Part shown: positions 32,519 to 64,000 of the stretch, one piece after another | Layout of the letters: every line of letters starts with the position of its first letter | How positions within the stretch are numbered: position 1 is the first letter of the stretch | NCBI RefSeq assembly: GCF_003334405.1 | Contig: NZ_QOWM01000012.1 | Source: Escherichia coli | GTDB taxonomy: Bacteria; Pseudomonadota; Gammaproteobacteria; Enterobacterales; Enterobacteriaceae | DNA length: 64,000 bases | Strand: one strand, 5' to 3' | Made by a program: the position numbers and the translations under genes | The notes under the pieces: generated by a model | The model's database searches: none | What the model was told of the DNA's origin: nothing | Seen by the model: the letters and a program-made list of their open reading frames with translations, nothing else

Positions 32519-32521
32519 GGG

Positions 32522-35156: not shown

Positions 35157-35160
35157 AGGG

Positions 35161-35502: not shown

Positions 35503-35516
35503 TTTTAACTTCCGGG

Positions 35517-36626: not shown

Positions 36627-36710
<84 letters not shown>

Positions 36711-38854: not shown

Positions 38855-38856
38855 TT

Positions 38857-39129: not shown

Positions 39130-39130
39130 G

Positions 39131-39913: not shown

Positions 39914-41042
39914 CAGCAGCGAAGAAAAAACAGAAAAACCCTCGGCGCAAAAGCTGCGTAAAGCGCGTGAAGAGGGGCAACTGCCGCGCTCGAAGGATAT
40001 GGGGCTGGCGGCGAGCCTGTTTGCGGCGTTTGTGGTGATCTCCAGCAGCTTCCCGTGGTATGCCGATTTTGTGCGCGAGAGTTTTATCAGCGTGCATCAG
40101 TACGCGCAGGAGATTAATAACCCGGAGGTGATCGGCCAGTTTCTGCGCCATCACCTGTTAATACTCGGCAAGTTTATTCTCACCTTGCTGCCGATGCCCG
40201 CTGCCGCGCTACTCTCTTCGCTGGTGCCCGGCGGCTGGCTGTTTCTGCCGAAAAAAATCCTCCCGGATTTCAGCAAAATCAGCCCGTTAAAAGGCATTGG
40301 GCGGCTGTTTTCCAGTGAACATCTGGCGGAAACGGGAAAGATGACGGTGAAGTCGGTGGTGGTGCTGGTGATGCTGTGGGTAAGCCTGCGCAATAACTTT
40401 GCCGCCTTTCTCGGCCTGCAGGCGCTACCGTTCAAACTGGCGATGAATGAGGGTTTATCGCTCTACGCCTGCGTGATGCGCAACTTTGTCATCCTGTTTA
40501 TCTTCTTTGCGTTAATCGACGTGCCGCTGGCGAAAGCCCTGTTTACCAAAGGGCTGAAGATGACCAAACAGGAGCTGAAAGAAGAGTATAAAAACCAGGA
40601 AGGCAAGCCGGAAGTGAAGGCGCGCGTGCGGCGTCTGCAACGGCAGTTGGCGATGGGGCAAATTCGCAAAGTGGTGCCGAAAGCCAACGTGGTGATCACC
40701 AACCCGACCCACTACGCCGTGGCGTTGCAGTATGACTCGTCGCGCGCCGCCGCGCCGTTTGTGGTGGCGAAAGGCACCGATGAAATCGCCCTCTATATTC
40801 GCCAGGTCGCCGCTGAGAATCAGGTGGAAGTGGTCGAGTTCCCGCGACTGGCGCGCTCGGTTTACTACACCACCCAGGTGAACCAGCAAATTCCGTTTCA
40901 GCTTTACCGGGCCATCGCCCACGTTCTGACCTACGTCCTGCAAATGAAACACTGGCGCGAGGGTGCACAGCCGCGCCCGGCCCTGAACAGACATATTTCC
41001 ATTCCCAAAGAGGTGCTTAAACTGGATGGCGAAAACAACTAA
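39903..41042 (+). CDS. lfhB: export switch protein LfhB (FlhB-like)
   Basis: 379 aa; NPTH autocleavage motif (VITNPTHYAVAL). Confidence 0.9.
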   Translation: MADSSSEEKTEKPSAQKLRKAREEGQLPRSKDMGLAASLFAAFVVISSSFPWYADFVRESFISVHQYAQEINNPEVIGQFLRHHLLILGKFILTLLPMPAAALLSSLVPGGWLFLPKKILPDFSKISPLKGIGRLFSSEHLAETGKMTVKSVVVLVMLWVSLRNNFAAFLGLQALPFKLAMNEGLSLYACVMRNFVILFIFFALIDVPLAKALFTKGLKMTKQELKEEYKNQEGKPEVKARVRRLQRQLAMGQIRKVVPKANVVITNPTHYAVALQYDSSRAAAPFVVAKGTDEIALYIRQVAAENQVEVVEFPRLARSVYYTTQVNQQIPFQLYRAIAHVLTYVLQMKHWREGAQPRPALNRHISIPKEVLKLDGENN

Positions 41043-43342: not shown

Positions 43343-43840
43343 TTATGAAATGATACGCTCCCCGGCACTAAAATCCGTTACGTCCCCCGCCCAATCGATG
43401 GGATATAACCCTCGCGCGACATCGCGATGGAACGTTGAGAATGGCCAATCACTCACTTGCTTTACCCAACCATGCTTTACTGGATTTATATAAATATAAT
43501 CAACATGATGCCTATAATCTTTGGTATTGCGGATGGCGTGCTCCCAAAAACGTGGTTGCCAGATATTTTTCAATCCACAAGCATGGGTAAATTGCTTTTT
43601 AATTTCCCGCCAGCGCGAGGAAAAATCATCATCGCCTTCAGGTAATGTCCAGATACAGTGCATATGCTCTGGCAAAACGACCCAGGCGTTGATTTCAAAA
43701 GGCCTGTCTCGCTTAACTTTAATAATGGCGTGACGGAGCATCTGGTACTGGGTGGTCAAAAGTTGGCTTCGACGATTTCGTAAATTCACCGTGAAAAACC
43801 ATGTTCCCCCCTTGATGTAATAACGACGATATTCAGACAT
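43343..43840 (-). CDS. rayT: REP-associated tyrosine transposase RayT (TnpA-REP)
   Basis: 165 aa starting MSEYRRYYIKGGTWFFTV; HUH-family motif (LPEHMHCIW); flanked on both sides by BIMEs. Confidence 0.85.
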   Translation of the reverse strand: MSEYRRYYIKGGTWFFTVNLRNRRSQLLTTQYQMLRHAIIKVKRDRPFEINAWVVLPEHMHCIWTLPEGDDDFSSRWREIKKQFTHACGLKNIWQPRFWEHAIRNTKDYRHHVDYIYINPVKHGWVKQVSDWPFSTFHRDVARGLYPIDWAGDVTDFSAGERIIS

Positions 43841-43919: not shown

Positions 43920-44025
43920 AAATATTCGCGGGCTCGTAGGCATGATAAGACGCGCCAGCGTCGCATCAGGCACCTGCGTACAACTGCCGGATGCGGCGTA
44001 AACGCCTTATCCGTCCTACAAAATC
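43920..44025. repeat. REP pair (BIME)
   Basis: gtaggcatgataagacgcgccagcgtcgcatcaggcacc ... ctgccggatgcggcgtaaacgccttatccgtcctac. Confidence 0.7.
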
Positions 44026-44765
44026 GTCTCTTCCGTCAAAATCCTGCGCGCGCCCAAAAAATGGTCCTGCCAGAAAGGTTCGGCTAATCGGCTTATCCGA
44101 ATGGTTTCGCCGGTACGTGGCGACTCGATAAATTGCCCATCGCCCAAATACACGCCCATATGATCGGCTATCTCGCGGCTGTGGATATGGAAAAACAGCA
44201 AATCTCCCCGGCGCAGGTCGTTGTTCGCCACAATCGTTGCCCGGCGATAGTGGTACATCTCATTGGCCGTGCGCGGGAGCTTAGCCTCAAGGATCTTGTT
44301 GTAGGCATAAAAAACCAACCCGCTACAGTCAAAGCCTTTATCAGGCCGCGTACCGCCCCAGACGTAAGGCTTGCCAAGCTGCTGCTCCAGGCGGTGAATC
44401 GCCACTTCGGTAATGTTATGCAGATGGTCGCTGCTTAAAAAGTGGTTGTTTTCCGCCAGCGCCTGCCAGCGTCTGTCACTCGCCTTGAGCGGAGCAGGAA
44501 ACCATTCTGGATGCTGTTTTATCTGCTCCCGGTTGTGCTGGCGTAGCGCCCTTTTGCTTTCGGCATTGCCTTCCACAATATAGCTGGCCTGCTTTTTCAG
44601 ATGAGTTTGGTACTGTTTTAATAAACGCGCACGGTTTTGCATCCGCTGGCGGGCGGCGTAGCTGAAAGAGATATGTGATGTGGTGGCGCTGGCAAATGAA
44701 GAAAACGGCAAACAAATCAACAGTAATCCCGACAATACAAAGGATGGAATCGACGGCAAGGACAT
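44016..44765 (-). CDS. yafL: NlpC/P60-family peptidoglycan endopeptidase lipoprotein YafL
   Basis: Start set at MSLPSIPSFVLSGLLLICLPFSSFA; C-terminal NlpC/P60 domain with Cys (...GFDCSGLVFYAY) and His. Confidence 0.8.
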   Translation of the reverse strand: MSLPSIPSFVLSGLLLICLPFSSFASATTSHISFSYAARQRMQNRARLLKQYQTHLKKQASYIVEGNAESKRALRQHNREQIKQHPEWFPAPLKASDRRWQALAENNHFLSSDHLHNITEVAIHRLEQQLGKPYVWGGTRPDKGFDCSGLVFYAYNKILEAKLPRTANEMYHYRRATIVANNDLRRGDLLFFHIHSREIADHMGVYLGDGQFIESPRTGETIRISRLAEPFWQDHFLGARRILTEETIL

Positions 44766-44942
44766 ACTCAATAATGGCTGGTCATGCTTTAATGTTGCAG
44801 TGTATCCCGGATCGTTTCTGAACAAACTTAATAAACCATTATTATAAAATTAACATATATATTTCAGTTAATTATGTAAAAACATCCGTTTATTAAATTA
44901 CTCATGGATTGTCGCTGTTGCTCATTTGAGCTACAATTCAAG

Positions 44943-48173: not shown

Positions 48174-50618
48174 ATGATGATTTTGAGTATTCTCGCTACG
48201 GTTGTCCTGCTCGGCGCGTTGTTCTATCACCGCGTGAGCTTATTTATCAGCAGTCTGATTTTGCTCGCCTGGACAGCCGCCCTCGGCGTTGCTGGTCTGT
48301 GGTCGGCGTGGGTACTGGTGCCTCTGGCCATTATCCTCGTGCCATTTAACTTTGCGCCTATGCGTAAGTCGATGATTTCCGCGCCGGTATTTCGCGGTTT
48401 CCGTAAGGTGATGCCGCCGATGTCGCGCACTGAGAAAGAAGCGATTGATGCGGGCACCACCTGGTGGGAGGGCGACTTGTTCCAGGGCAAGCCGGACTGG
48501 AAAAAGCTGCATAACTATCCGCAGCCGCGTCTGACCGCCGAAGAGCAAGCGTTTCTCGACGGCCCGGTAGAAGAAGCCTGCCGGATGGCGAATGATTTCC
48601 AGATCACCCATGAGCTGGCGGATCTGCCGCCGGAGTTGTGGGCGTACCTTAAAGAGCATCGTTTCTTCGCGATGATCATCAAAAAAGAGTACGGCGGGCT
48701 GGAGTTCTCGGCTTATGCCCAGTCTCGCGTGCTGCAAAAACTCTCCGGCGTGAGCGGGATCCTGGCGATTACCGTCGGCGTGCCAAACTCATTAGGCCCG
48801 GGCGAACTGTTGCAACATTACGGCACTGACGAGCAGAAAGATCACTATCTGCCGCGTCTGGCGCGTGGTCAGGAGATCCCCTGCTTTGCACTGACCAGCC
48901 CGGAAGCGGGTTCCGATGCGGGCGCGATTCCGGACACCGGGATTGTCTGCATGGGCGAATGGCAGGGCCAGCAGGTGCTGGGGATGCGTCTGACCTGGAA
49001 CAAACGCTACATTACGCTGGCACCGATTGCGACCGTGCTTGGGCTGGCGTTTAAACTCTCCGACCCGGAAAAATTACTCGGCGGTGCAGAAGATTTAGGC
49101 ATTACCTGTGCGCTGATCCCAACCACCACGCCGGGCGTGGAAATTGGTCGTCGCCACTTCCCGCTGAACGTACCGTTCCAGAACGGACCGACGCGCGGTA
49201 AAGATGTCTTCGTGCCGATCGATTACATCATCGGCGGGCCGAAAATGGCCGGGCAAGGCTGGCGGATGCTGGTGGAGTGCCTCTCGGTAGGCCGCGGCAT
49301 CACCCTGCCTTCCAACTCAACCGGCGGCGTGAAATCGGTAGCGCTGGCAACCGGCGCGTATGCTCACATTCGCCGTCAGTTCAAAATCTCTATTGGTAAG
49401 ATGGAAGGGATTGAAGAGCCGCTGGCGCGTATTGCCGGTAATGCCTACGTGATGGATGCTGCGGCATCGCTGATTACCTACGGCATTATGCTCGGCGAAA
49501 AACCTGCCGTGCTGTCGGCTATCGTTAAGTATCACTGTACCCACCGCGGGCAGCAGTCGATTATTGATGCGATGGATATTACCGGCGGTAAAGGCATTAT
49601 GCTCGGGCAAAGCAACTTCCTGGCGCGTGCTTACCAGGGCGCACCGATTGCCATCACCGTTGAAGGGGCTAACATTCTGACCCGCAGCATGATGATCTTC
49701 GGACAAGGAGCGATTCGTTGCCATCCGTACGTGCTGGAAGAGATGGAAGCGGCGAAGAACAATGACGTCAACGCGTTCGATAAACTGTTGTTCAAACATA
49801 TCGGTCACGTCGGTAGCAACAAAGTTCGCAGCTTCTGGCTGGGCCTGACGCGCGGTTTAACCAGCAGCACGCCAACCGGCGATGCCACTAAACGCTACTA
49901 TCAGCACCTGAACCGCCTGAGCGCCAACCTCGCCCTGCTTTCTGATGTCTCGATGGCAGTGCTGGGCGGCAGCCTGAAACGTCGCGAGCGCATCTCGGCC
50001 CGTCTGGGGGATATTTTAAGCCAGCTCTACCTCGCCTCTGCCGTGCTGAAGCGTTATGACGACGAAGGCCGTAATGAAGCCGACCTGCCGCTGGTGCACT
50101 GGGGCGTACAAGATGCGCTGTATCAGGCTGAACAGGCGATGGATGATTTACTGCAAAACTTCCCGAACCGCGTGGTTGCCGGGCTGCTGAATGTGGTGAT
50201 CTTCCCGACCGGACGTCATTATCTGGCACCTTCTGACAAGCTGGATCATAAAGTGGCGAAGATTTTACAAGTGCCGAACGCCACCCGTTCCCGCATTGGT
50301 CGCGGTCAGTACCTGACGCCGAGCGAGCATAATCCGGTTGGCTTGCTGGAAGAGGCGCTGGTGGATGTGATTGCCGCCGACCCAATTCATCAGCGGATCT
50401 GTAAAGAGCTGGGTAAAAACCTGCCGTTTACCCGTCTGGATGAACTGGCGCACAACGCGCTGGTGAAGGGGCTGATTGATAAAGATGAAGCCGCTATTCT
50501 GGTGAAAGCTGAAGAAAGCCGTCTGCGCAGTATTAACGTTGATGACTTTGATCCGGAAGAGCTGGCGACGAAGCCGGTAAAGTTGCCGGAGAAAGTGCGG
50601 AAAGTTGAAGCCGCGTAA
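48174..50618 (+). CDS. fadE: acyl-CoA dehydrogenase FadE
   Basis: 814 aa from [14 protein letters not shown]; N-terminal TM helices plus acyl-CoA dehydrogenase domains. Confidence 0.95.
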
Positions 50619-50626
50619 ATGAATAA

Positions 50627-50652
50627 CGGAGCCGAAAGGCTCCGTTTCTTTA
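50627..50652. terminator. bidirectional intrinsic terminator between fadE and ivy
   Basis: cggagccgaaaggctccg hairpin followed by TTTCTTT. Confidence 0.6.
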
Positions 50653-50660
50653 TCCGCTAA

Positions 50661-51134
50661 TTATTTAAAATTAAAGCCATCCGGATGGTTTTCCAGGCTG
50701 CCGGTCAACGCCGCGAACAACACCGTTTTACCATCAATCGAAAGCGCATCGTTCACATTCAGCCAGGTGAGTTTCTCTTGCGACGTTTTCTCATCAATAG
50801 TCGAGAACAGCCCCGTCATCTGATTAGATTTCTCGGACCACATCACAGCGATACGTTGCGAGCCACAGTCATGCGGTTTGCACGCGCTCATCACCTGATA
50901 CGTCTCATCTCCCAACGTTACGGTTTGTGCGGGAGTATAAGTACCGCCTTTCATCACCCAGGCAGGCAGCTTATGCCCTTGTACCATCTGATTAAATGCA
51001 GCTTTGGTGGTTTCGCCCTTTGCAAGGCTGCTAATGGTTAAATCATCCTGCGCCATTGCACTGGTGGCGATGACCAGAGCGGCGACTGTCGTTATTGCCT
51101 TAAACATCATTCCTCCCGAGCTTATCCTGCCCAT
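50661..51134 (-). CDS. ivy: inhibitor of vertebrate lysozyme
   Basis: 157 aa with signal peptide and CKPHDCG loop motif. Confidence 0.9.
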   Translation of the reverse strand: MGRISSGGMMFKAITTVAALVIATSAMAQDDLTISSLAKGETTKAAFNQMVQGHKLPAWVMKGGTYTPAQTVTLGDETYQVMSACKPHDCGSQRIAVMWSEKSNQMTGLFSTIDEKTSQEKLTWLNVNDALSIDGKTVLFAALTGSLENHPDGFNFK

Positions 51135-51287
51135 GTTATTAACCTCCTAAAGCCTGGCGATAACACGATAATTTGCAAATCAGATATTTCCAATATCAGC
51201 ATTTGTTATCAATTTATTCTGCGCTAAGGCAACTGCCTGATAAGGTGTTAAAGTTATAAAACCCTTCGCATAAAGGAGTTGTACACC

Positions 51288-52058
51288 GTGCCTGGTTTGA
51301 AGATTACGCTTTTGCAGCAACCACTGGTGTGGATGGATGGTCCTGCCAACCTGCGTCATTTTGATCGTCAACTGGAAGGTATTACCGGGCGCGATGTGAT
51401 CGTTCTACCGGAGATGTTTACCAGCGGCTTTGCCATGGAAGCGGCAGCTTCGTCGCTAGCACAAGATGACGTAGTGAACTGGATGACAGCTAAGGCGCAG
51501 CAGTGCAATGCGCTGATTGCAGGCAGTGTTGCATTACAAACGGAGTCTGGTTCGGTTAACCGCTTTTTGCTGGTTGAGCCGGGCGGCACGGTACATTTTT
51601 ATGATAAGCGTCATCTGTTCCGCATGGCAGATGAGCATCTACATTATAAAGCGGGCAATGCGCGAGTGATTGTGGAATGGCGCGGCTGGCGTATTTTGCC
51701 GCTGGTGTGCTACGACTTACGTTTTCCTGTGTGGTCGCGCAATCTCAACGATTATGACCTCGCCCTGTACGTCGCCAACTGGCCTGCTCCGCGCTCTCTG
51801 CACTGGCAGGCATTGCTGACGGCCCGCGCGATTGAGAATCAGGCGTATGTGGCGGGATGCAATCGCGTCGGCAGCGATGGCAACGGCTGCCATTATCGCG
51901 GTGACAGCCGGGTGATTAATCCGCAAGGAGAGATTATCGCTACTGCCGACGCGCATCAGGCAACGCGCATTGATGCGGAGCTGTCGATGGCAGCATTGCG
52001 GGAATATAGAGAAAAGTTTCCGGCATGGCAGGATGCGGATGAGTTTAGGTTGTGGTGA
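51288..52058 (+). CDS. yafV: nitrilase-superfamily omega-amidase YafV
   Basis: 256 aa from GTG (MPGLKITLLQQPLVW), RBS AAGGAG; carbon-nitrogen hydrolase fold (E...K...C triad context, CYDLRFP). Confidence 0.85.
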   Translation: MPGLKITLLQQPLVWMDGPANLRHFDRQLEGITGRDVIVLPEMFTSGFAMEAAASSLAQDDVVNWMTAKAQQCNALIAGSVALQTESGSVNRFLLVEPGGTVHFYDKRHLFRMADEHLHYKAGNARVIVEWRGWRILPLVCYDLRFPVWSRNLNDYDLALYVANWPAPRSLHWQALLTARAIENQAYVAGCNRVGSDGNGCHYRGDSRVINPQGEIIATADAHQATRIDAELSMAALREYREKFPAWQDADEFRLW

Positions 52059-52098
52059 GTGGGGGTTGTGTTTAAGGACGGGGAGAGTCGGGGTATTA

Positions 52099-53235
52099 CT
52101 ACGAAAGCCCGCTCCCCGCAAGGACTGACGCCAGGTAGTTTCTGTCCATGGCTGCTTTTCGCATCTTACGTCTTAACCCTGCCTTGAATACCTTCTCATT
52201 CGTCAAAATATTAATAGCAATGTGCCGTATCCCTGAAAATAATTCTGCTGCGTTTCCTCTTCTTATTTTGTAGTCGTCTTCATTCATTACCACGTCCAGA
52301 CGCCTGTGCAGCTTATTCTCCACGTGCCAGTGGTTTCGGATTGCTGTGGCGAACTTCTCTGCGGTTAAATCAGCAGAACTGATATAATATCTGACCGTCA
52401 TTTCTGGCTCTTTCTTTTGTTCTGCTATTATTGACCGAAAGGAGACTGCCACGCATAATTTCTTCAGCCCTTTCCATTCAAACGTGAAATCAATAAGTTC
52501 ATCAGGGACATCGCAAACAATATGAAGACGGATTTCTTCTCTGCCGTGACTCTTTTCACTCATTGCGTAACTGTCATGCGCTGGATTATTTAATTCTTTC
52601 AGCGGAAATTTTTCCTCAAAGGCTTTATTTAGCCGCCCCTGGTTTCCTTTTACCGCGAATAAATAATCACCTCCCTGTTTTTGTATCTTCTCTGCAATAT
52701 CTTTCTGGCAACCCATCGCATCAGTTGTGATGATTTTTCCTTTAATATCCAGCATGTTAAGAAGTTCTGGGATAGCTGTAATCTCATTAGATTTCTCATC
52801 CGTCCTGATCTGTCCGATGACCAGACTGTGCATTGTTGAGAACGCACTAATGACATGAATCGCTCCCTTGCGGCGACTCTTGTCATAAGAATGCCGGAGT
52901 GTTTTTCCATCAATTGCGATGACGTCTTTATCATCTGAAGTATGGCAATCTCGCATCCAGTTAATAAAGCACTCGTGAAATTTTGAAGGACTGATACAGG
53001 ATACAACTCTGGCGATGGTATCGTGAACAGGAATACCATTTTCAAAATCACCATATTGTTTTAAAAAATCGAGATGTGTTTCCCCAAAATCCTCTATATC
53101 TTCCCAGCCTTCTGCACCAGAAATAACGGCACAAATAGTCAACAGTAGAATATCCGATAATTTATGTTCCACTTTCCAGGCTTGTCTGTAATCGGGGATA
53201 ATAGAAATATGTTCCATCAATTTTTTAAGTTCCAT
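52099..53235 (-). mobile_element. ISAs1-family (H-repeat) transposase, full-length ORF
   Basis: 378-aa [21 protein letters not shown]...; H-repeat-associated protein family typical next to Rhs elements; corresponds positionally to K-12 pseudogene yafF. Confidence 0.8.
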
Positions 53236-53333
53236 TTTGTTCTCCTTAATTATGTAAGGAGTATTTGATCATGTATAAGCAATAAAAAACAGCTTCAGGT
53301 AATGAGGAATATCTCAATTTTTAAACATAAAAT

Positions 53334-53632
53334 GCGAATTATTTAGTACAAAAAATCAGCGTTACGTGATCTTTCCCTGCCCCTGCGCTCACTACCATGG
53401 CTCTTTACCACAGCAGCCGGGGTTGTTTGGGACCGACTTCCGACAGCAGATCCCGGTGGGCCTGCCACCATCTCTTCACAAGCTTATGCTTATTACATGC
53501 AAAACGTCCCGTTTTGCATCTTTGTGCCTACGGCACACCGGTGATCTTTCCCTGATGAGGGATATATTAACTATTGAACATTAGCGCGAATTATTTAGTG
53601 CAAAAAATCAGCATCACGTGATGCTTTTCCTG
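53334..53632. repeat. pair of ~45-bp direct repeats flanking a ~200-bp GC-rich segment
   Basis: gcgaattatttagtRcaaaaaatcagcRtYacgtgatSttttcctgc at 53334-53379 and 53586-53632; core gtgatctttccctg also at 53541-53554. Confidence 0.4.
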
Positions 53633-53665
53633 CTATTAATAACCTCCTCTATTTAACTATATTTT

Positions 53666-54058
53666 TCATTGATGCAATTCGTAGATTTGAAGAAGTTCAA
53701 CTGCCACATTTTTATTTTTACTATCGCAATTTTTATACCATACCCATGCTTCCGTATTTTTTACTTTTTTTAAATCATCCATAATAAAATCCCCACCAAA
53801 AACAGTAAAATACAATGTTTCCTCATTAAAAATAAAACTCACTGCCCCCCCCTCTTTTATTTTAATTTCCGCTTCATTTGTGTTCAAATCAACTTTTTTA
53901 ATTACTCCATGTAAGTTGGGTTTTGATAGTTTTTCTACGCCACCATCAGGAGCGGGTAATATACATCGTTTAAGAACTTTAGCATTTGCACATCCAATAA
54001 CCCAAATTAGAATGCACACTCCCATGTTAATCGCATTAACGTGTCTTAAAACGTTCAT
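53666..54058 (-). CDS. candidate immunity lipoprotein for the Rhs C-terminal toxin
   Basis: 130-aa AT-rich ORF immediately downstream of rhs tip; N-terminal signal sequence with lipobox-like VIGC; start codon uncertain. Confidence 0.45.
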
Positions 54059-55478
54059 ATCTAATTCTCTCTCCAGGATGCGAATACATCCAACTTGTCA
54101 CTTTCTTACACAACTCATCTACATCTTCATTCTGTGCACGGGTACATCCCATAGTTGGTTTCCAGCCTTGTCGAGGAGCATAAGGATCGCGCAACGATGA
54201 TCCCCCACCATGTAGCCATCTTGCTCTAGTATCTGTAGTATAGATCTTCGTTGTGCCATATGCTGCCGATATTCCTGATTCATTTGTCTCACAACCAACG
54301 ACTTCACCTGTATATGGATCACCAGCACCACGTTGAGAACGACGATCAATTCTATTGCTACTATCAAAAGTCATTGAATCACCTGTTTCAGGATCATAAT
54401 AAATAGTCACTCCTCCAGTCATATCAGTAAGAACAAGAGGAGTTTCAGCACCTGCCCGGTCTGGAGCGGGAGGCCCATATACACTTATAACTCGTTCTAA
54501 CCCCAGTGGATCAGTGTAACGTATTGGTACCAGTGGATACGTGTATAGATTTATTCCCCCCTTCAACCCTATCGGATCCTGGGTGATATACCGCCCCTGC
54601 AACGGATCGTAGTACCGGTGACGGTTGTAATACAGTCCCGACTCCTCATCATACTGCTGCCCCGGCAGACGGAGTGACTGTTGAAGGTGCTGCGCACTGG
54701 TTTCGCCCAGCAGGTTTCCCCATTCGTCATACTCCCCGCACCACGCCGTTTCCCCTTCCGGGCTGATAAGCGCCTGCGGCAGTCCCCGGTGGTCACAGTG
54801 GTAAAGATGAAGTTTCCTCTCCGGGATGTATTCCGCCTCCATCTGCGCGGCCATCTGTTCCGCCGTCAGCCCGCACTGCGCAAGCCATGCCTCACTCTCC
54901 GCACTCACCGCTCCCGCGCGCAGTTCCCGCTCCAGCCTCCCCAGCATCACCGCCAGCTCCGCCGGGAGCGTCACACCCGTGTCCTCCTGCAACACCTCCG
55001 CCAGGCTCCGGTGCCGCGCCTTCGCCTGTTCGCCATTCTCTGTTTCGATTCTGATGAGCGGCGTGAAGCTCCCCGGCTGGTATACCGTCTGGATACGCGT
55101 GGTGCCGGTCTGTACCGTCGTCAGCCTGTCACCGTCCCACCCGTACCATGTCACCTCCGGTTTACGCGACAGCGACATCCACCCCGTCAGGTCACGCTCC
55201 CGCCGCCATACCCGTTTTCCCGTCCGGCGGCCCAGCGGGTCATAGAGGTACCGGCTCTCCACCTGTGGTTCGCCGTGCTGTATCCGCGTGTAGAACACCA
55301 GGCGGTGCTGGCTGTCGTAGTGGTAGTGGTGGGTCCGCTCGTCGTGCATCCGTATCACCCCTTCCGGGATGCGGTCCGTCTTCTCCGCCAGCCTGCCGTA
55401 TTCATCGTGGCGGTAGACATAGTGCGCATCTTCCGCGATGCGGTTACCCGGCGTTTTCCCCGATGCTGGTTGAGTGGC
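54036..55478 (-). CDS. rhs: Rhs protein C-terminal fragment (core repeats + DPLGL boundary + L,D-transpeptidase-like toxin domain)
   Basis: YD/Rhs repeats ([20 protein letters not shown]), conserved ...[26 protein letters not shown]...DPLGL core end, then 153-aa tip with LHGG...[15 protein letters not shown]; frame opens only at 55478, so N-terminal ~1000 aa absent. Confidence 0.7.
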
Positions 55479-57958
55479 TTAAAGAGGGCTGGCTGCTGGC
55501 GTCGGCTGAGATGCAGCACAGCGAACTGCGCGGCGGCGTGTTGCTGCTGGCCCTGCTGCATTCGCCGCTGCGTTATATACCGCCTGCTGCCGCCCGGCTG
55601 TTGACCGGCATTAACCGTGACCGTCTGCAACAGGACTTTGTGCAGTGGACACAGGAGTCGGCGGAATCAGTCGTGCCGGATGCAGACGGTAAAGGCGCAG
55701 GCACAATGACGGACGCCTCTGACACCCTGCTTGCCCGCTATGCCAAAAACATGACCGCAGACGCCCGTAACGGCAGGCTTGACCCGGTACTGTGCCGCGA
55801 CCACGAAATCGACCTGATGATCGACATTCTCTGCCGCCGCCGTAAAAACAACCCGGTGGTGGTGGGCGAAGCGGGCGTGGGCAAAAGCGCACTGATTGAA
55901 GGGCTGGCGCTGCGCATCGTGGCAGGCCAGGTGCCGGACAAGCTGAAAAACACCGATATCATGACCCTTGACTTGGGCGCATTGCAGGCCGGGGCGTCGG
56001 TGAAGGGTGAATTCGAAAAACGTTTCAAAGGGCTGATGGCGGAGGTCATTTCCTCCCCGGTGCCGGTCATTCTGTTTATCGACGAAGCACATACCCTGAT
56101 TGGCGCGGGCAACCAGCAGGGCGGGCTGGATATCTCCAACCTGCTCAAACCGGCGCTGGCGCGCGGCGAGCTGAAAACCATCGCCGCCACCACCTGGAGC
56201 GAGTACAAAAAATACTTCGAAAAAGATGCCGCCCTGTCGCGCCGCTTCCAGTTGGTGAAGGTCAGCGAACCCAACGCTGCCGAAGCCACCATTATTCTGC
56301 GCGGTCTGTCGGCGGTCTATGAACAGTCTCACGGCGTGCTGATTGATGATGACGCCTTGCAGGCCGCTGCGACATTAAGCGAGCGTTATCTCTCCGGGCG
56401 TCAGTTACCGGACAAAGCGATTGATGTGCTGGATACCGCCTGCGCCCGTGTGGCCATCAACCTGTCGTCGCCGCCGAAGCAAATCTCGGCGCTGACCACT
56501 CTGAGCCACCAGCAGGAGGCGGAAATTCGCCAGCTTGAGCGCGAGCTTCGCATCGGACTGCGTACCGACACATCACGGATGACAGAGGTGCTGGTGCAGT
56601 ATGATGAAACGCTGACGGCGCTGGATGAACTGGAAGCGGCCTGGCACCAGCAGCAGACGCTGGTCCGGGAGATTATCGCGCTGCGCCAGCAGTTACTGGG
56701 CGTGGCAGAGGACGATGCGGCGCCGTTGCCGGACGCAGATACCGTGGAGGATACGCAGCCAGAGTCAGAGTCAGAACAGGATAATACCGGTGCCGTACCG
56801 GCTGATGAGGCCGACAGAGAACAACCGGAAGAGACCGCTGAAACAGTTTCCCCGGTACAGCGGCTGGCCCAGCTCACTGCCGAACTGGACGCCCTGCATA
56901 ACGACCGGTTGCTGGTCTCCCCGCACGTCGATAAAAAACAGATTGCGGCGGTGATTGCCGAATGGACCGGCGTGCCGCTCAACCGCCTGTCGCAGAATGA
57001 AATGTCGGTCATCACCGACCTGACGAAATGGCTGGGTGACACCATCAAAGGCCAGGACCTGGCGATTGCCAGCCTGCATAAGCATCTACTGACCGCACGC
57101 GCCGACCTGCGTCGTCCGGGACGCCCGCTCGGTGCGTTCCTGCTGGCTGGCCCCAGCGGTGTGGGTAAAACCGAAACCGTCCTGCAACTGGCAGAGCTGC
57201 TCTACGGCGGTCGCCAGTACCTGACCACCATCAATATGTCCGAATTCCAGGAGAAACACACCGTCTCGCGGCTGATTGGTTCGCCTCCGGGCTACGTTGG
57301 CTACGGTGAAGGCGGCGTACTGACCGAAGCGATTCGTCAGAAACCCTACTCGGTAGTACTGCTCGATGAAGTGGAAAAAGCGCACCCGGATGTGCTCAAC
57401 CTGTTCTACCAGGCGTTCGATAAGGGCGAAATGGCAGACGGTGAAGGCCGCCTGATTGACTGCAAAAATATCGTCTTCTTCCTGACGTCCAACCTCGGCT
57501 ACCAGGTAATAGTCGAGCATGCCGATGACCCGGAAACCATGCAGGAAGTACTGTATCCGGTGCTGGCCGACTTCTTCAAACCTGCCCTGCTGGCGCGTAT
57601 GGAAGTGGTGCCGTATCTGCCGCTGTCGAAAGAGACGCTCGCCACCATTATCGCCGGAAAACTGGCCCGTCTGGATAACGTGCTGCGCAGTCGCTTTGGT
57701 GCAGAAGTGGTCATTGAACCGGAAGTGACGGACGAAATCATGAGCCGCGTCACCCGCGCGGAAAACGGCGCGAGGATGCTGGAATCGGTCATCGATGGCG
57801 ACATGCTACCGCCGCTCTCGCTGCTGCTGTTGCAGAAAATGGCGGCTAACACGGCGATTGCCCGGATTCGGTTGTCGGCAGTGGACGGCGCATTTACGGC
57901 AGACGTGGAAGATGCTCAGAACGACGAGTCCGTCACAAAGGATGAAACGGTTTTATGA
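55463..57958 (+). CDS. clpV: ClpV-like AAA+ ATPase (TssH), 5-prime end abutting rhs fragment; N-domain short or truncated
   Basis: Two AAA+ modules (GEAGVGKSA; GPSGVGKTE); N-terminal segment [10 protein letters not shown]...; only ~85 aa precede the linker ([19 protein letters not shown]) versus ~150 expected; no RBS or intergenic space. Confidence 0.7.
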
Positions 57959-58698
57959 GCAGGTTGCGCGTTTTCCGGCAGACAGGATGGTTTATCGCGG
58001 GCCTGATGACGGGCTTACCCGCCACTGCCGCGCCCGCAGAAGCATCGTCAATGGCCGGTGTGGCGGTCGCCGTCGCCACCACGACCCCGCCGGATGCGAC
58101 AGCCACGTTACAGGCCATACAGTCCTGTCGGCGGGAGTCCGCGGCGCTGGAGCGGCTTGACTGCTATGACCGCCTGCTGGCACCGCTGTCCCCGTCAGGG
58201 TTTGACGGGGCGCTGGTCAAAGCCGGTTTTGTGGGCGAGGCCTGGACCCGCGCCACAGAGCAGGAAAAACGCCGCGAGGGCAACACCACAGAACTGCTGG
58301 TGACGCAGGTGCCGGGGGAGCGCCCGACGGTGGTGATAACCACCCCGGCTATCGGTCATGTTCCGCCACGCCCGGTGCTGATGTTCAGTTGCGTGGACAA
58401 TATCACCCGGATGCAGGTGGCGCTGATGCACCCTCTGGATGTCCATGATATCGCCGTCACTCTGAATGCCGACAACCGGGCATTGCGCAGCCACTGGTTT
58501 GTGCGCGAGAACGGCACCCTGCTGGAGTCCAGCCGGGGGTTATCCGGGATTGATGAAATTAAGCAACTGTTCGGCGCAAAAACGCTGACGGTGGATACCA
58601 GGGACGACGTATCGGGCCTTATGTGGAACAGACCTATCTGCAACTGCTGGAGCAACGTTACCTGCCCTCGCTGTTTAACGGGCTGGTCAAAGCGATGA
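57955..58698 (+). CDS. secreted protein, possibly T6SS-associated (VasI-like); 3-prime end runs into tssM fragment
   Basis: Signal peptide [30 protein letters not shown]; ATGA overlap with clpV stop; assignment by position and composition only. Confidence 0.35.
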   Translation: MSRLRVFRQTGWFIAGLMTGLPATAAPAEASSMAGVAVAVATTTPPDATATLQAIQSCRRESAALERLDCYDRLLAPLSPSGFDGALVKAGFVGEAWTRATEQEKRREGNTTELLVTQVPGERPTVVITTPAIGHVPPRPVLMFSCVDNITRMQVALMHPLDVHDIAVTLNADNRALRSHWFVRENGTLLESSRGLSGIDEIKQLFGAKTLTVDTRDDVSGLMWNRPICNCWSNVTCPRCLTGWSKR

Positions 58699-60521
58699 AC
58701 GCCGCGCCGCCGGAGAGTGAAGAAAAACTCGCGGTGCTGCGCGTAATGCGAATGCTGGAGGACAAAAGCGGACGTAACAATGAGGTGGTGAAGCAGTATA
58801 TGGCAAAACGCTGGAGCGAAAAATTCCACGGCCAGCGCGATATCCAGGCACAACTGATGTCCCATCTTGACTACGCGCTGGCTCATACTGACTGGCATGC
58901 AGAGCGTCAGGCGGGCGACGGTGACGCCATCAGCCGCTGGACGCCATATGACAAGCCCGTGGTATCAGCACAGAAAGAACTGAGCAAACTGCCTGTCTAC
59001 CAGCGGGTTTACCAGAGCCTGAAAACGCGGGCGCTGGGCGTTCTTCCTGCCGACCTCAATCTGCGTGACCAGGTAGGGCCAACCTTTGACCAGGTGTTTA
59101 CATCTGCCGATGACAACAAACTGGTTGTTCCACAGTTTCTTACCCGTTACGGCCTGCAAAGCTATTTTGTAAAACAGCGCGATGAACTGGTTGAACTGAC
59201 GGCGATGGATTCCTGGGTACTTAACCTTACCCGCAGCGTGAAATACAGTGACGCCGACCGCGCGGAAATCCAGCGCCAGTTGACCGAGCAGTATATCAGC
59301 GACTACACCGCCACCTGGCGGGCCGGGATGGACAATCTGAATATCCGCAATTTTGAGTCCATCGGACAACTGACCGGGGCGCTGGAGCAGGTTATCAGCG
59401 GCGACCAGCCTTTGCAGCGGGCGCTGACCGTCCTGCGTGACAACACACAGCCAGGCGTCTTTTCTGAAAAACTCTCTGCCAAAGAACGGGAGGAAGCCCT
59501 GGCAGAGCCGGATTACCAGTTACTCACCCGCCTCGGGCATGAATTCGCCCCGGAAAACAGTACCCTGGCAGTACAGAAAGACAAAGAAAGCACGATGCAG
59601 GCCGTGTATCAGCAACTCACCGAGTTGCACCGCTACCTGCTGGCAATCCAGAACGCGCCTGTACCAGGGAAATCGGCGCTGAAAGCCGTGCAGTTACGGC
59701 TTGATCAGAACAGCAGCGATCCGATATTCGCCACCCGCCAGATGGCAAAAACGCTGCCTGCTCCGCTCAACCGCTGGGTTGGCAGACTGACTGACCAGGC
59801 CTGGCATGTGGTGATGGTGGAGGCTGTTCATTATATGGAAGTGGACTGGCGCGACAGCGTGGTGAAACCGTTTAACGAGCAACTGGCAAATAACTATCCG
59901 TTTAATCCGCGTTCTGCACAGGATGCCTCACTGGATGCCTTCGAACGCTTCTTTAAACCGGATGGCATACTGGATACCTTCTACCAGCAGAACCTGAAGC
60001 TGTTTATCGATAATGACCTGAGTCTGGAGGATGGCGATAACAACGTCATTATTCGCGAAGATATTATTGCGCAACTGGAAACTGCGCAGAAAATCCGTGA
60101 CATCTTCTTCAGCAAACAGAACGGTCTGGGAACATCCTTTGCCGTGGAAACGGTATCGCTTTCAGGCAATAAACGCCGCAGTGTACTGAACCTTGACGGT
60201 CAGTTAGTCGATTACAGCCAGGGCCGTAACTATACCGCCCATCTGGTCTGGCCTAACAACATGCGCGAAGGCAACGAAAGTAAGCTGACGCTCATCGGCA
60301 CCAGCGGCAACGCGCCGCGCAGTATCAGCTTCAGCGGGCCGTGGGCGCAGTTCCGCCTGTTCGGGGCCGGACAACTGACCGGAGTACAGGATGGCAACTT
60401 TACCGTGCGCTTTAGCGTGGACGGTGGCGCGATGACCTACCGTGTGCATACCGACACGGAAGATAACCCGTTCAGCGGTGGGTTGTTCAGCCAGTTTGGT
60501 CTGTCAGACACACTGTACTGA
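58623..60521 (+). pseudogene. tssM: TssM (IcmF) C-terminal fragment, lacks N-terminal TM/NTPase region
   Basis: 632-aa ORF resembling the periplasmic IcmF-related and C-terminal domains (…FERFFKPDGILDTFYQQNL…, …FRLFGAGQLTG…); frame opens at ~58563 with GTG start only. Confidence 0.5.
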
Positions 60522-60531
60522 GGAGGCAGGG

Positions 60532-61884
60532 ATGAATAGTAACGTACTGACACAAACTATCGTTACCGGCAGTGACCCGCGCGGGCTGCCGGAATTCAGC
60601 GCCATCCGCGAGGAAATAAACAAAGCCAGCCACCCGTCACAGCCTGAGCTGAACTGGAAACTGGTGGAGTCGCTGGCGCTGGCGATTTTTAAAGCCAACG
60701 GTGTGGATTTACACACCGCCACCTACTATACGCTTGCCCGGACACGGACACAGGGACTGGCGGGATTCTGCGAAGGTGCGGAACTGCTGGCGGCAATGGT
60801 AAGCCACGACTGGGATAAGTTCTGGCCGCAGGGCGGCCCGGCGCGTACTGAAATGCTGGACTGGTTTAACTCCCGAACCGGCAATATTCTGCGTCAGCAA
60901 ATCTCCTTTGCGGAATCCGACCTACCACTGATCTACCGCACAGAGCGGGCATTGCAGCTTATCTGCGATAAGCTCCAGCAGGTGGAACTGAAGCGCGTTC
61001 CGCGCGTGGAGAATCTGCTCTATTTTATGCAGAACACGCGTAAACGGCTTGAACCCCAGCTGAAGAGTAACACTGAGAACGCCGCACAGACCACGGTCAG
61101 AACGCTGATTTATGCCCCGGAAACACAGGCATCTTCCACACCAGAAGCGGTAGTGCCTCCCCTGCCCGGCCTGCCTGAGATGAAAGTGGAAGTGCGCAGT
61201 CTGACAGAGAATCCCCCACAGGCCAGTGTGATAAAGCAAGGCAGTACGGTAAGAGGGTTTATCGCAGGGATCGCCTGTTCAGTGGCTGTCGCCTCAGCAT
61301 TGTGGTGGTGGCAGGTCTATCCGGTGCAGCAGCAACTGTTACAGGTTAACGACACCGCTCAGGGCGCAGCAACGGTGTGGATGGCCTCACCTGAACTCGA
61401 AAACTATGAGCGCAGGCTGCAACAACTTCTTGATACCTCCCCGGTACAGCCGCTGGAAACCGGGATGCAGATGATGCGTGTTGCCGACAGTCGCTGGCCG
61501 GAAAGCCTGCAACAGCAACAGGCCTCGACACAATGGAATGAGGCACTCAAAACCCGCGCACAGAGTAGCCCGCAGTTGCGTGGCTGGTTGCAGACCCGCC
61601 AGGACTTACATGCTTTTGCAGATCTAGTGATGCAGCGCGAGAAAGAGGGACTAACCCTTTCCTATATCAAAAATGTCATCTGGCAGGCGGAGCGGGGACT
61701 GGGGCAGGAAACACCCGTTGAGTCTCTGTTGACGCAGTACCATGATGCCCGTGCGCAGAAGCAGAATACAGATGCGCTGGAAAAACAAATTAATGAGCGA
61801 CTCGAAGGTGTGTTAAGCCGCTGGCTGCTGCTGAAGAATAACGTCATGCCAGAGGCGGCAACCGGTACCACGGCCGAAAAATAA
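60532..61884 (+). CDS. TssA-like (ImpA N-domain) protein with C-proximal TM helix (VasL/TagA-like)
   Basis: RBS GAGGAGG then ATG; N-terminal ...LPEFSAIREEINK...NWKLVESLALAIFKANGVDLHTATYYTLARTRTQGLAGFCEGAELLAAM resembles ImpA_N; TM segment GFIAGIACSVAVASALWWW. Confidence 0.55.
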   Translation: MNSNVLTQTIVTGSDPRGLPEFSAIREEINKASHPSQPELNWKLVESLALAIFKANGVDLHTATYYTLARTRTQGLAGFCEGAELLAAMVSHDWDKFWPQGGPARTEMLDWFNSRTGNILRQQISFAESDLPLIYRTERALQLICDKLQQVELKRVPRVENLLYFMQNTRKRLEPQLKSNTENAAQTTVRTLIYAPETQASSTPEAVVPPLPGLPEMKVEVRSLTENPPQASVIKQGSTVRGFIAGIACSVAVASALWWWQVYPVQQQLLQVNDTAQGAATVWMASPELENYERRLQQLLDTSPVQPLETGMQMMRVADSRWPESLQQQQASTQWNEALKTRAQSSPQLRGWLQTRQDLHAFADLVMQREKEGLTLSYIKNVIWQAERGLGQETPVESLLTQYHDARAQKQNTDALEKQINERLEGVLSRWLLLKNNVMPEAATGTTAEK

Positions 61885-61907
61885 TTATTTAATTAAAGGA
61901 GATTATC

Positions 61908-62390
61908 ATGGCAAATATAAGTTATTTATCTTTGAGTGGAGAGACACAAGGGCTAATTTCAGCAGGTTGCTCAACGCTTGATTCTGTCGGAAACAAAGCG
62001 CAGCCAGAACATAAAGATCAGATCATGGTTTATGCGTTAATGCATTCCATCTCAAGAAGTCAAAATGTCAATCATCATGAATTAATTATCACCAAACCGG
62101 TTGATAAATCCTCACCATTGCTGGCAAAAGCACTTAGTGACAATGAAAAAATGGCAATATGTGAATTTATACTCTACCGAACCAGTAAAGCGGGTATTTA
62201 CCAGCCTTATTATAAAATAAATCTGTCAAAAGCCCGAATATCAAGTATTGATTTTGTCACACCGCATGCTGTCCTGGAAAAAGAACTGGAACCACAGGAG
62301 AGAATTGCCTTTATTTATGAAGATATTTCCTGGGAGCATACGTTAGCCGGTACGAATGCAATGAGTAAATGGCAGGATCGTGTACAGTAA
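61908..62390 (+). CDS. hcp: Hcp (TssD) type VI secretion tube protein
   Basis: 160 aa; alignable to Hcp blocks: ITKPVDKSSPLLAKALSDNEKMAICEF, YYKINLSKARISSIDF, ERIAFIYEDISWEH; RBS AAGGAG. Confidence 0.85.
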   Translation: MANISYLSLSGETQGLISAGCSTLDSVGNKAQPEHKDQIMVYALMHSISRSQNVNHHELIITKPVDKSSPLLAKALSDNEKMAICEFILYRTSKAGIYQPYYKINLSKARISSIDFVTPHAVLEKELEPQERIAFIYEDISWEHTLAGTNAMSKWQDRVQ

Positions 62391-62433
62391 CTTACTGTAA
62401 TAACATAATAAATTACTATTGCGGAGAGATAAA

Positions 62434-63348
62434 ATGGCTGGTTTAAGGAATAACAACAACACACAGAATGCACAGTGGGCTGATTATGTGGGTGACATTC
62501 TTCGGGGGGCTCAGCCGATAAACCAGCTAGTACCTCAGCACCCTTATCTTAACGACGTCCCACTCATTGATGAGTTAAGGCATCAGAACACTCATCATGT
62601 TATTCCCTTGACACTTGATGTTGCAAAAAAAATACTCAGCCCAATAACATCATTTGATTACATTCATTTTATCACTACACATCCTTCAGGTATAAAAGAT
62701 ACACTCGCCTGGTTAGTTAACGCGGGTAAATTAATGACTGAGTTTGATGACAATGGGAAAATTATATTTAACCTTAATGCCTTAAAGTATACAAAAGCAA
62801 GTTACTTTGAAATACTTGGAGAGAAATATATAAAAATCACAACATCCAGCCCCTGGCTTTTAGAAAAGCTCGGTAAATATATTTTCTCTTCACGAGCGCC
62901 TCAAGTTCTGGAACTCGCTATTGGCTGGCGAGGAGCTTTATCTGAATCAATAAAAGGAGTTAAGTTCTGTATCTGGTTTTCAGTAGCCTGGAGAACCATA
63001 GAATTTATTATGAGTTCAGAGCGAGATCTGGTTAATTTTCTTGGCGATTTTTCAATGGATGTGGCCAAAGCAGTTATAGCCGGTGGTGTTGCAACCGCTA
63101 TTGGAAGTCTGGCTTCTTTTGCCTGTGTTAGCTTTGGCTTTCCAGTAATTCTTGTCGGAGGAGCAATTTTACTGACAGGGATAGTGTGTACAGTTGTTTT
63201 AAATGAAATCGATGCTCAATGCCATTTATCAGAAAAATTAAAATATGCAATTAGAGATGGACTAAAACGGCAACAGGAACTTGATAAATGGAAAAGGGAA
63301 AACATGACTCCATTTATGTATGTTCTTAACACTCCACCCGTGATATGA
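62434..63348 (+). CDS. candidate Hcp-linked membrane-targeting effector (glycine-zipper C-terminal region), function unknown
   Basis: 304-aa ORF 44 nt after hcp, RBS GGAGAG; C-terminal hydrophobic segments AVIAGGVATAIGSLASFACVSFGFPVILVGGAILLTGIV with small-xxx-small spacing; AT-rich. Confidence 0.4.
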   Translation: MAGLRNNNNTQNAQWADYVGDILRGAQPINQLVPQHPYLNDVPLIDELRHQNTHHVIPLTLDVAKKILSPITSFDYIHFITTHPSGIKDTLAWLVNAGKLMTEFDDNGKIIFNLNALKYTKASYFEILGEKYIKITTSSPWLLEKLGKYIFSSRAPQVLELAIGWRGALSESIKGVKFCIWFSVAWRTIEFIMSSERDLVNFLGDFSMDVAKAVIAGGVATAIGSLASFACVSFGFPVILVGGAILLTGIVCTVVLNEIDAQCHLSEKLKYAIRDGLKRQQELDKWKRENMTPFMYVLNTPPVI

Positions 63349-63357
63349 GGATTAACC

Positions 63358-63837
63358 ATGCGTTTACATGTTAAATTAAAAGAGTTTCTTTCGATGTTTT
63401 TTATGGCCATATTATTTTTCCCTGCATTCAATGCTTCTTTGTTTTTTACCGGAGTTAAACCTCTATATTCAATAATAAAATGCTCCACGGAAATATTTTA
63501 TGATTGGAGAATGTTGATTCTGTGCTTCGGTTTCATGTCGTTTTCCTTTTTAAATATTCATGTAATTTTACTTACGATAATAAAATCATTCTTAATCAAA
63601 AAAACGAAGGTAGTCAATTTCGCCACAGACATAACAATACAGCTAACTCTTATATTTTTACTAATAGCTATCGTAATAGCACCTTTAATAGCTCCTTTTG
63701 TCACAGGATATGTCAATACTAATTATCACCCCTGCGGTAATAATACGGGAATTTTCCCAGGAGCAATCTATATTAAAAATGGCATGAAATGTAATAATGG
63801 ATATATTTCTCGCAAGGAAGATTCAGCAGTTAAATAA
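63358..63837 (+). CDS. candidate cognate immunity protein (polytopic membrane protein)
   Basis: 159-aa ORF 10 nt after previous stop, 3-4 predicted TM helices, very AT-rich. Confidence 0.4.
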   Translation: MRLHVKLKEFLSMFFMAILFFPAFNASLFFTGVKPLYSIIKCSTEIFYDWRMLILCFGFMSFSFLNIHVILLTIIKSFLIKKTKVVNFATDITIQLTLIFLLIAIVIAPLIAPFVTGYVNTNYHPCGNNTGIFPGAIYIKNGMKCNNGYISRKEDSAVK

Positions 63838-64000
63838 TTAAATATTCTAAAACAAACAGTTTTTAACTCCGGATTCCATGTCCTTTCTTGCACTGTCTTT
63901 GTCAAGAAAAATTTCTTATGCAAAGAATTTTGTATTATTGCCGCCAGAAATTCCTGGCGGCAGATATAATTTATTATTGATAGCGGTTAACCAAATCTTT

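Follow-up and report, generated by a model that had tools for sequence, protein, structure and literature searches.

In Escherichia coli, a 64,000-nt stretch of chromosomal DNA (RefSeq assembly GCF_003334405.1, contig NZ_QOWM01000012.1; hereafter, the window) ends in a block of three AT-rich genes on the plus strand (61890–63840). This block lies at the 3′ end of the main operon of type VI secretion system (T6SS) 2, T6SS-2, near yafT and the tRNA-Asp gene aspV. With a probability of about 0.82, we interpret it as a module that closes the E. coli T6SS-2 locus and consists of hcp (61908–62390), the effector gene tme (62434–63348) and the immunity gene ykfM (63358–63837), the last two being, by sequence, members of the Tme and Tmi families, respectively. 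A first-pass annotation of the same DNA had postulated an effector and membrane immunity pair behind an hcp gene, and the pair was borne out by a published listing of the effector as Tme and by the DUF1240-like character of YkfM. Since these exact proteins stand in the family table of Fridman et al. (2020, Nat Commun; PMC7046647), the pair was already known and is not a new kind of system; the E. coli hcp-tme-ykfM proteins had been catalogued, and the finding is correct, not new.

The second gene of the block, tme, encodes a 304-amino acid (aa), 34.0-kDa protein (WP_000908066.1), which is the full-length form of the product of the K-12 pseudogene yafU. The start codon was taken as ATG, as annotated by RefSeq in identical loci; an alternative TTG at 62419 would give a protein of 309 aa. 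Direct domain searches with this protein gave nothing, and its identification came by way of the DUF1240 genes neighboring its homologues, which led to the study of Fridman et al. (PMC7046647). In that study, Tme was defined as a group of membrane-disrupting T6SS effectors that share a C-terminal domain homologous to residues 161–310 of Tme1, with a near-invariant DxxK motif followed by a predicted transmembrane (TM) helix flanked by a conserved Asp. WP_000908066.1 is itself listed there for numerous E. coli genomes. The entry gives a Tme domain at residues 122–277 (E = 2.6e-36) and, as neighbors, Hcp (WP_001284199.1) at a distance of 43 nt upstream and WP_001236645.1, with 3 TM helices, at 9 nt downstream (PMC7046647 Supplementary Data 5). 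With these limits, the Tme domain occupies 62797–63264 of the window.

The features of the family were found in the window protein in the expected order. A motif scan located DxxK at D209-V-A-K212 (63058–63069), and Kyte–Doolittle hydropathy analysis gave two adjacent hydrophobic segments at about residues 213–236 and 238–259, which contain the small-xxx-small run A216GGVATAIGSLAS228; the two glycine-zipper-like segments reported in the first-pass annotation are thus present. Together they form a helical hairpin (residues 213–259; 63070–63213 with the D260 that closes it) that is proposed to be the membrane-inserting element. The genetic linkage also agrees, hcp being located 43 nt upstream inside the T6SS-2 locus. 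An exhaustive phmmer search of 1.84 billion representative sequences returned 147 clusters at E ≤0.001, in which relatives other than close ones aligned to residues of about 120–280. In an alignment of 61 sequences, the columns that were at least 90% conserved, besides the start Met, were G129, G164, G175, D209, K212 and D260, and all six are present in the window protein. An AlphaFold2 model showed a small β-sheet (residues 100–136) and long helices at 164–193, 199–234, 238–263 and 265–290, with a predicted local distance difference test score of 74–95 over the Tme domain and of only 48–66 in the N-terminal region. The ten-helix globular fold of pore-forming colicins was not found for this protein. 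Relatives in AFDB50 included PAAR fusions and proteins named “glycine zipper” from Vibrio, Pseudomonas, Xenorhabdus, Photorhabdus and Yersinia, and homologues were found in Salmonella enterica (61% identity) and Rahnella bruchi (39%). The published RPS-BLAST domain match and our own motif and phmmer results are in agreement and place the 304-aa protein by sequence in the Tme family. In UniProt, several close homologues from Salmonella, Superficieibacter and Photorhabdus bear the name “ImpA domain-containing protein”.

The third gene, ykfM, encodes a 159-aa inner-membrane protein (18.1 kDa, pI 9.6, WP_001236645.1). Three to four hydrophobic segments (residues 10–33, 52–81 and 85–121) were observed, in keeping with the polytopic membrane protein that had been noticed at this position, and the published Phobius topology is i12-32o52-75i96-119o, with 3 TM helices (PMC7046647 Supplementary Data 5). 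DUF1240 and DUF1240-like proteins were proposed as the Tmi immunity family on the basis of similarity networks and HHpred; they are encoded directly downstream of tme and have 3–6 predicted TM helices (PMC7046647). YkfM has this layout, with its gene 9 nt downstream of tme and three predicted TM helices. It shared 51% identity (E = 1e-47) with the protein encoded downstream of Salmonella tme, which matches PF06836 (DUF1240), and its homologues P0176 (66% identity) and P0181 (56%) also carry PF06836. When ten proteins encoded downstream of tme homologues were aligned, including YkfM, PF06836 was matched at E ≤0.1 in five of them, and C126, Y138 and C145, located after the last TM helix, were invariant in all ten. 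Given the published 3-TM topology, this Cys...Tyr...Cys tail (63733–63792) is predicted to be periplasmic, and C126 and C145 may form a disulfide. The layout and the identity to PF06836-bearing proteins support YkfM as a predicted Tmi-family immunity protein.

The first gene, hcp, encodes a 160-aa, 18.0-kDa TssD tube protein identical to WP_001284199.1. The hcp assignment of the first-pass annotation was confirmed by a match to TIGR03344 (TssD/Hcp; E = 2e-60, 203.4 bits against a cutoff of 58.9) over residues 1–157 of 160. The closest solved structure was that of Pseudomonas aeruginosa Hcp3 (3HE1, E = 5e-23). The gene occupies the same position as hcp1 (z0247) of enterohaemorrhagic E. coli EDL933, directly behind a VasL-like gene where the tssB-hcp operon ends, and 3HE1, the best relative of the window Hcp in the Protein Data Bank, was also the template for Hcp2A of avian pathogenic E. 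coli (APEC). The window gene is probably that encoding Hcp2A, an identification made from position and the 3HE1 template rather than from a comparison of sequences. In APEC, T6SS-2 genes including hcp2A are repressed by H-NS and induced by serum; the two downstream genes, tme and ykfM, are not discussed in the papers on Hcp2A and hcp1. The Hcp2B/XmtU-XmtV effector pair of APEC T6SS-2 was considered and set aside as a different module, which lies beside vgrG2 and is transcribed in the opposite direction.

The three genes are set apart from the rest of the locus by composition. The GC content per 300-nt window was 0.57–0.59 at 61300–61750, fell to 0.37–0.43 from 61750 and reached 0.29–0.33 at 63400–64000. 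By gene, it was 0.559 in vasL and 0.552 in the tssM fragment, compared to 0.385 in hcp, 0.389 in tme and 0.306 in ykfM; the cassette as a whole is 0.363 GC, against a window mean of 0.535. The sharp fall claimed at about 61890 is therefore real, amounting to a change from about 56% to 36%, and the break coincides with the vasL stop codon (61884). hcp belongs with tme and ykfM in this respect, unlike the remaining T6SS-2 genes (55–60% GC). The intergenic distances are 23 nt (vasL–hcp), 43 nt (hcp–tme) and 9 nt (tme–ykfM), and a plausible ribosome-binding site precedes each of the three genes. A search with 61800–64000 found matches in 3402 of the 5426 complete E. coli genomes, in many cases at 100% identity, and their annotation shows genes for a VasL-domain protein, an Hcp family protein and a hypothetical protein, followed by ykfM and yafT. 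In strain CFSAN061772, identical DNA encodes WP_001284199.1 (Hcp), WP_000908066.1 (304 aa) and WP_001236645.1 (YkfM), followed by the convergent yafT and by tRNA-Asp.

A similar triplet was found in other genomes; its AT-rich layout recurs in three other taxa or samples, which speaks against a chance arrangement. In S. enterica (GCA_027232745.1, locus L005), hcp, tme and a DUF1240 gene are located at the same yafT/dnaQ site. The R. bruchi triplet differs in that its hcp is on the opposite strand, and no further T6SS gene lies within 8 kb of it. The triplet of metagenome contig L009 lies between genes for a LacI-type regulator and an acetyltransferase, outside any T6SS cluster. Metagenome contig L008 has a like three-gene layout in which the downstream membrane open reading frame (ORF) has no Pfam match. 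As a whole, five other loci were examined, and in four of them (those of S. enterica, R. bruchi, L008 and L009) hcp adjoins the tme homologue; a DUF1240 or DUF1240-like gene follows the homologue in S. enterica, R. bruchi, L009 and L011. Where measurable (S. enterica, R. bruchi and L009), the triplet is 35–40% GC and its flanks 51–57%. Alignment showed that the hcp-linked Tme homologues have in common a conserved N-terminal region (about residues 1–69; 62434–62640 in the window), which is proposed to act as a delivery or loading tag. The Salmonella locus also contains, downstream of tme-tmi, a second tme paralogue (9586–10513) that is frameshifted (tblastn frames 2 and then 3) and a second DUF1240 gene (10555–11010). 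The locus holds two effector and immunity pairs in tandem, one of the toxins being degraded, which is typical of effector/immunity arrays. The two tme copies are nearly identical over their first 45 or so residues; this repeated N-terminus suggests that the region is a modular loading element, which would bind Hcp.

We then compared the T6SS-2 genes upstream of the cassette with an intact locus. In strain NADC1036 (locus L007), the gene order is tssB, tssC, tssE, tssF, tssG, tagH, tssJ, tssK, tssL, tssH, vasI, tssA, tssM, vasL, hcp, tme and ykfM. NCBIfam matches and comparison with this locus showed that the window retains only a remnant of the operon (55445–61884, plus strand), namely, tssH and vasI, which lack the 5′ 252 nt and the 3′ end, respectively, the last 632 codons of tssM, and vasL, which is intact (60532–61884). 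Positions 55445–58599 correspond to 9881–13029 of the NADC1036 locus and positions 58596–64000 to 16163–21567. Lost with the missing 3.1 kb (13030–16162 of the NADC1036 locus) are tssA, the 3′ end of vasI and 1.5 kb at the 5′ end of tssM. In place of the tssB–tssL half, which in the intact locus is all that precedes tssH, the window has 52099–55358, which holds on the minus strand an ISAs1 transposase gene (52099–53235; 378 aa, NF033564, E = 5e-122) and an Rhs C-terminal core fragment (54036–55358; NF041261 profile positions 970–1261, TIGR03696). Small ORFs located beyond the Rhs tip may represent an orphan toxin tip with its immunity gene. The rhs/tssH junction is at 55445, and at the vasI/tssM junction (58596–58599) the alignment blocks overlap by 4 nt; no single continuous match across the latter was found in the 5426 complete E. 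coli genomes. Because sheath, baseplate, TssJ, TssK, TssL and TssA are missing and TssH and TssM are truncated, this locus is unable to fire the toxin. The suspicion of a defective local T6SS was thus well founded, with tssB–tssL, tssA and half of tssM gone. CFSAN061772 carries a different T6SS-2 deletion, and the differing deletions in other strains indicate that T6SS-2 has decayed repeatedly and independently.

A further case of decay is provided by E. coli K-12. The K-12 MG1655 genome (236000–243000) is 100% identical to the window at 50001–52379 and at 62992–64000, and this identity on both flanks indicates that K-12 corresponds to the window minus 52380–62991 (10.6 kb). This single deletion runs from a point beside or within ISAs1 into tme, so that codons 1–186 or so are lost, and it removes the T6SS remnant and hcp. 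The pseudogenes yafF and yafU flank the junction; judged only by coordinates, yafF overlaps the ISAs1 transposase ORF of the window. The translation of yafU (b0218) is identical (100%) to residues 193–304 (112 aa) of the 304-aa protein, and ykfM (b4586) is intact in a stretch that matches the window at 100% identity. K-12 is thus without hcp, the first 192 tme codons and the T6SS remnant, and has kept ykfM. On this evidence, yafU is what is left, at the 3′ end, of the gene for a predicted T6SS membrane toxin, to which ykfM is predicted to confer immunity.

The same asymmetry was observed in the population. Among the 5426 complete E. coli genomes (coverage 80% or more), ykfM was present in 2998, the 5′ half of tme in 2574, the whole cassette in 2544 and the T6SS-2 sheath genes tssBC in 2184; tssBC was counted because a tssA–tssM query cross-matched other T6SS types at 60–95% identity. 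Subtraction of these totals gives an excess of ykfM of at least 814 genomes over the sheath genes and at least 424 over the toxin 5′ half, differences that assume nested sets and are only indicative. The ordering implies that immunity outlasts the toxin and the toxin outlasts the machine, a stepwise disarmament in which the machine is lost first, the toxin next and immunity last, and it fits the retention of orphan immunity. Between diverged E. coli alleles and between E. coli and Salmonella, the pairwise ratio of non-synonymous to synonymous substitution (dN/dS) was 0.18–0.32 for tme and ykfM, and both genes are under purifying selection. E. coli–Salmonella aa identity was 61% for the effector and 48% for the immunity protein, compared to 74% for Hcp and 76% for VasL, which marks the first two as the faster-diverging proteins.

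The activity of the E. coli proteins can be proposed by analogy with Tme1/Tmi1 and Tme2/Tmi2 of Vibrio parahaemolyticus, which have the same C-terminal Tme domain, a downstream multi-TM DUF1240-like gene and linkage to a T6SS. Tme1 and Tme2 are secreted in a T6SS-dependent manner and are toxic in the E. coli periplasm, mainly in the case of Tme2; they dissipate the membrane potential and cause permeability to propidium iodide comparable to that caused by VasX, and only the cognate Tmi rescues the cells (PMC7046647). Of the family, these two Vibrio pairs are the only ones for which that study demonstrated toxicity and immunity by experiment. The systems also differ in that E. coli tme follows a dedicated hcp in or at the edge of T6SS-2, whereas the Vibrio genes are orphan pairs of T6SS1, and in that the N-terminus of Vibrio Tme1 is a RIX domain, whereas that of the E. 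coli protein is the enterobacterial region of the hcp-linked homologues. In a cell with an intact T6SS-2, Tme would be loaded onto the apparatus, likely by the adjacent dedicated Hcp through the Tme N-terminal region, and injected into the periplasm of neighboring bacteria. The Tme domain, with its DxxK motif, hairpin (213–259) and D260, would then insert, coming from the periplasm, into the inner membrane of the target cell, dissipating the membrane potential, collapsing the proton-motive force and permeabilizing the membrane, as for Tme1 and Tme2. YkfM, a predicted three-TM protein with a periplasmic Cys...Tyr...Cys tail, would shield the producer and its kin by specifically neutralizing the cognate Tme. 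By this analogy, the E. coli Tme is most likely toxic through membrane insertion, and YkfM most likely blocks it in producer and kin cells.

Similar modes of action occur among other T6SS effectors. Tse4/Tsi4 of P. aeruginosa and Ssp6/Sip6 of Serratia marcescens are pairs in which a small, non-enzymatic, membrane-depolarizing effector acts from the periplasm. Tse4 and Ssp6 have hydrophobic or glycine-zipper-like helices, dissipate the proton-motive force and are counteracted by membrane immunity proteins, and Tse4 is reported to be Hcp-dependent. They are under about 25 kDa, and their immunity families differ from Tmi; no sequence relationship to Tme was seen in any search made. The pore-forming VasX (VasX/TsiV2) of Vibrio cholerae is a VgrG-associated protein of over 1000 aa. 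In the assays of depolarization and permeabilization, it was the positive control whose phenotype Tme1 and Tme2 reproduced, and it was absent among the sequence and fold matches of the 304-aa protein.

Several observations weigh against the module as we describe it, and the alternatives must be judged with them in view. Neither the 304-aa protein nor YkfM gave a match in Pfam (E up to 10), NCBIfam or PADLOC; as PF06836 itself was not detected in YkfM, which falls below Pfam detection, YkfM is most accurately called “DUF1240-like”. The literature searched contained no experiment on the E. coli tme/ykfM pair, and two in silico surveys of E. coli T6SS effectors make no mention of it. The reported phenotypes of ykfM in K-12 may point in another direction. 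Nalidixic acid, mitomycin C and peroxide were reported to be lethal stresses to which a K-12 ykfM::Tn5 mutant is hyper-susceptible (PMC2824699). In QMS-seq, ykfM ranked highest in mutation occurrence over three antibiotic conditions (PMC11742677), and every replicate adapted to a KFF-peptide nucleic acid (PNA) acquired ykfM variants (bioRxiv 10.1101/2024.10.29.620885). None of these three reports links ykfM to T6SS immunity, and recent K-12 literature describes it as an uncharacterized membrane protein or possible porin. The phenotypes hint at an activity unrelated to the T6SS, and the recurrent variants may reflect selection, a mutational hotspot (the gene is 31% GC) or a mapping artefact. 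Together with database names such as “inner membrane protein YafU”, they would suit YafU and YkfM being housekeeping or stress inner-membrane proteins that have nothing to do with interbacterial killing and lie next to T6SS genes incidentally. We consider this very improbable, because about 45% of complete E. coli genomes have no such pair, the toxin gene is reduced in K-12 to the pseudogene yafU, the genes travel in AT-rich mobile modules with hcp across several genera, the family includes members with experimentally demonstrated T6SS secretion and toxicity, and Salmonella has a tandem array with a second, degraded tme and a second DUF1240 gene. Still more improbable is a role of the 304-aa protein as an accessory or structural part of the T6SS that is anchored in the membrane, such as a tube-stopping factor resembling TagA or VasL. 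Its position directly after vasL and hcp, the ImpA names of some homologues and the existence of ImpA–Tme fusions speak for such a role; however, no ImpA_N domain was detected in the Pfam search, the protein evolves faster than the structural genes, homologues occur in orphan islands away from T6SS clusters, and the gene that follows is of the DUF1240 or DUF1240-like type in S. enterica, R. bruchi, L009 and L011 and a Pfam-less membrane ORF in L008.

The remaining alternatives accept a Tme/Tmi pair and concern its delivery and its present use. Adjacency, shared composition and the co-mobility of hcp, tme and tmi suggest that delivery of Tme depends on Hcp. However, Tme is a 34-kDa protein, which calls for caution as to carriage in the Hcp lumen. 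Most effectors known to ride there are smaller. Vibrio Tme1 carries instead an N-terminal RIX domain, to which PMC10435454 assigns a role in delivery. Given the size of Tme and the RIX domain of its Vibrio relative, Hcp-dependent delivery is a candidate route. Tme could instead be loaded onto VgrG or PAAR by an adaptor or tether, as with RIX-type Tme, hcp being simply the last structural gene. In intact loci hcp does close the tssB–vasL operon, Tme domains are fused to PAAR, VgrG, MIX and ImpA N-termini (PMC7046647), and PAAR occurs in the AFDB50 relatives. This route seems unlikely to us, given that hcp is AT-rich like tme and ykfM and unlike the operon, that it moves with tme/tmi to sites without nearby T6SS genes (R. 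bruchi and L009) and that the hcp-linked homologues have their N-terminal region in common. As regards use, the local T6SS cannot assemble, hence we make no claim of delivery for this strain; either the module here became a relic recently, or a further T6SS encoded elsewhere in the genome serves it. It is conceivable, if doubtful, that the cassette is a pure relic in which toxin and immunity are both unused and are intact only because T6SS-2 decayed recently. The extensive deletion of T6SS-2, the independent decay patterns in CFSAN061772 and K-12 and the vasI/tssM junction, for which no complete genome gave a single continuous match, are in line with this, and the AT-rich DNA is probably silenced by H-NS, which in APEC represses T6SS-2 genes including hcp2A. 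Against it stand the excess of ykfM over sheath and toxin genes (again assuming nested sets), a dN/dS well below 1 and the state of K-12, where an intact ykfM beside a truncated toxin gene is the asymmetry predicted by selection for orphan immunity. Immunity of YkfM against Tme-armed E. coli is most likely the function still in use.

Within the Hcp/Tme/Tmi interpretation, these considerations can be combined into a more speculative proposal, which we put forward tentatively and hold to be possible rather than probable. The block would be a self-contained, mobile “ammunition clip” whose toxin bears an N-terminal tag (about 45–70 residues) recognized by its dedicated Hcp, and YkfM would serve as orphan immunity that, in the gut, actively shields K-12 and at least 800 sequenced E. 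coli without T6SS-2 sheath genes against relatives armed with Tme. If this were true, the tag would be a portable Hcp-loading signal for membrane toxins of the 30-kDa class, and the hitherto unexplained K-12 ykfM phenotypes and recurrent variants would have to be reframed. Independently of this proposal, the analysis annotates three genes whose RefSeq entries still read “hypothetical protein” or “protein YkfM”, and K-12 yafU and ykfM, long unexplained, gain annotation as a toxin remnant and a predicted immunity gene. Laboratory hosts derived from K-12 carry ykfM, which may mask Tme toxicity in heterologous tests, and ykfM matches in K-12 resistance and evolution screens should be read with a Tmi origin in mind.

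Downstream of the cassette, a GC-rich 10-bp hairpin (TTGCCGCCAG...CTGGCGGCAG; 63938–63963, plus strand) with the appearance of a terminator lies between the convergent ykfM and yafT, and is probably a bidirectional terminator. In a scan for promoters and terminators, the number of sites did not exceed the shuffled expectation, which makes the evidence for this terminator weak, and no RNA family of Rfam was found in 61000–64000. In NADC1036, the region from yafT to aspV is AT-rich as well (yafT, 43% GC; spacers, 28–32%), indicating that the low-GC island reaches the tRNA-Asp gene.

Elsewhere in the window, a second flagellar cluster resembling Flag-2 was observed at about 29600–43100. Its ORFs are apparently full length and matched FliI, FliH, FliG, FliF, a σ54 activator, a FliM-like protein, FliP, FliR, FlhB and FlhA. 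K-12 retains only fragments of the Flag-2 locus. A gene for a REP-associated tyrosine transposase (43343–43840, minus strand; NF047646, E = 5e-53) has this flagellar cluster on one side and, on the other, a gene for an NlpC/P60 peptidoglycan hydrolase (44016–44825).

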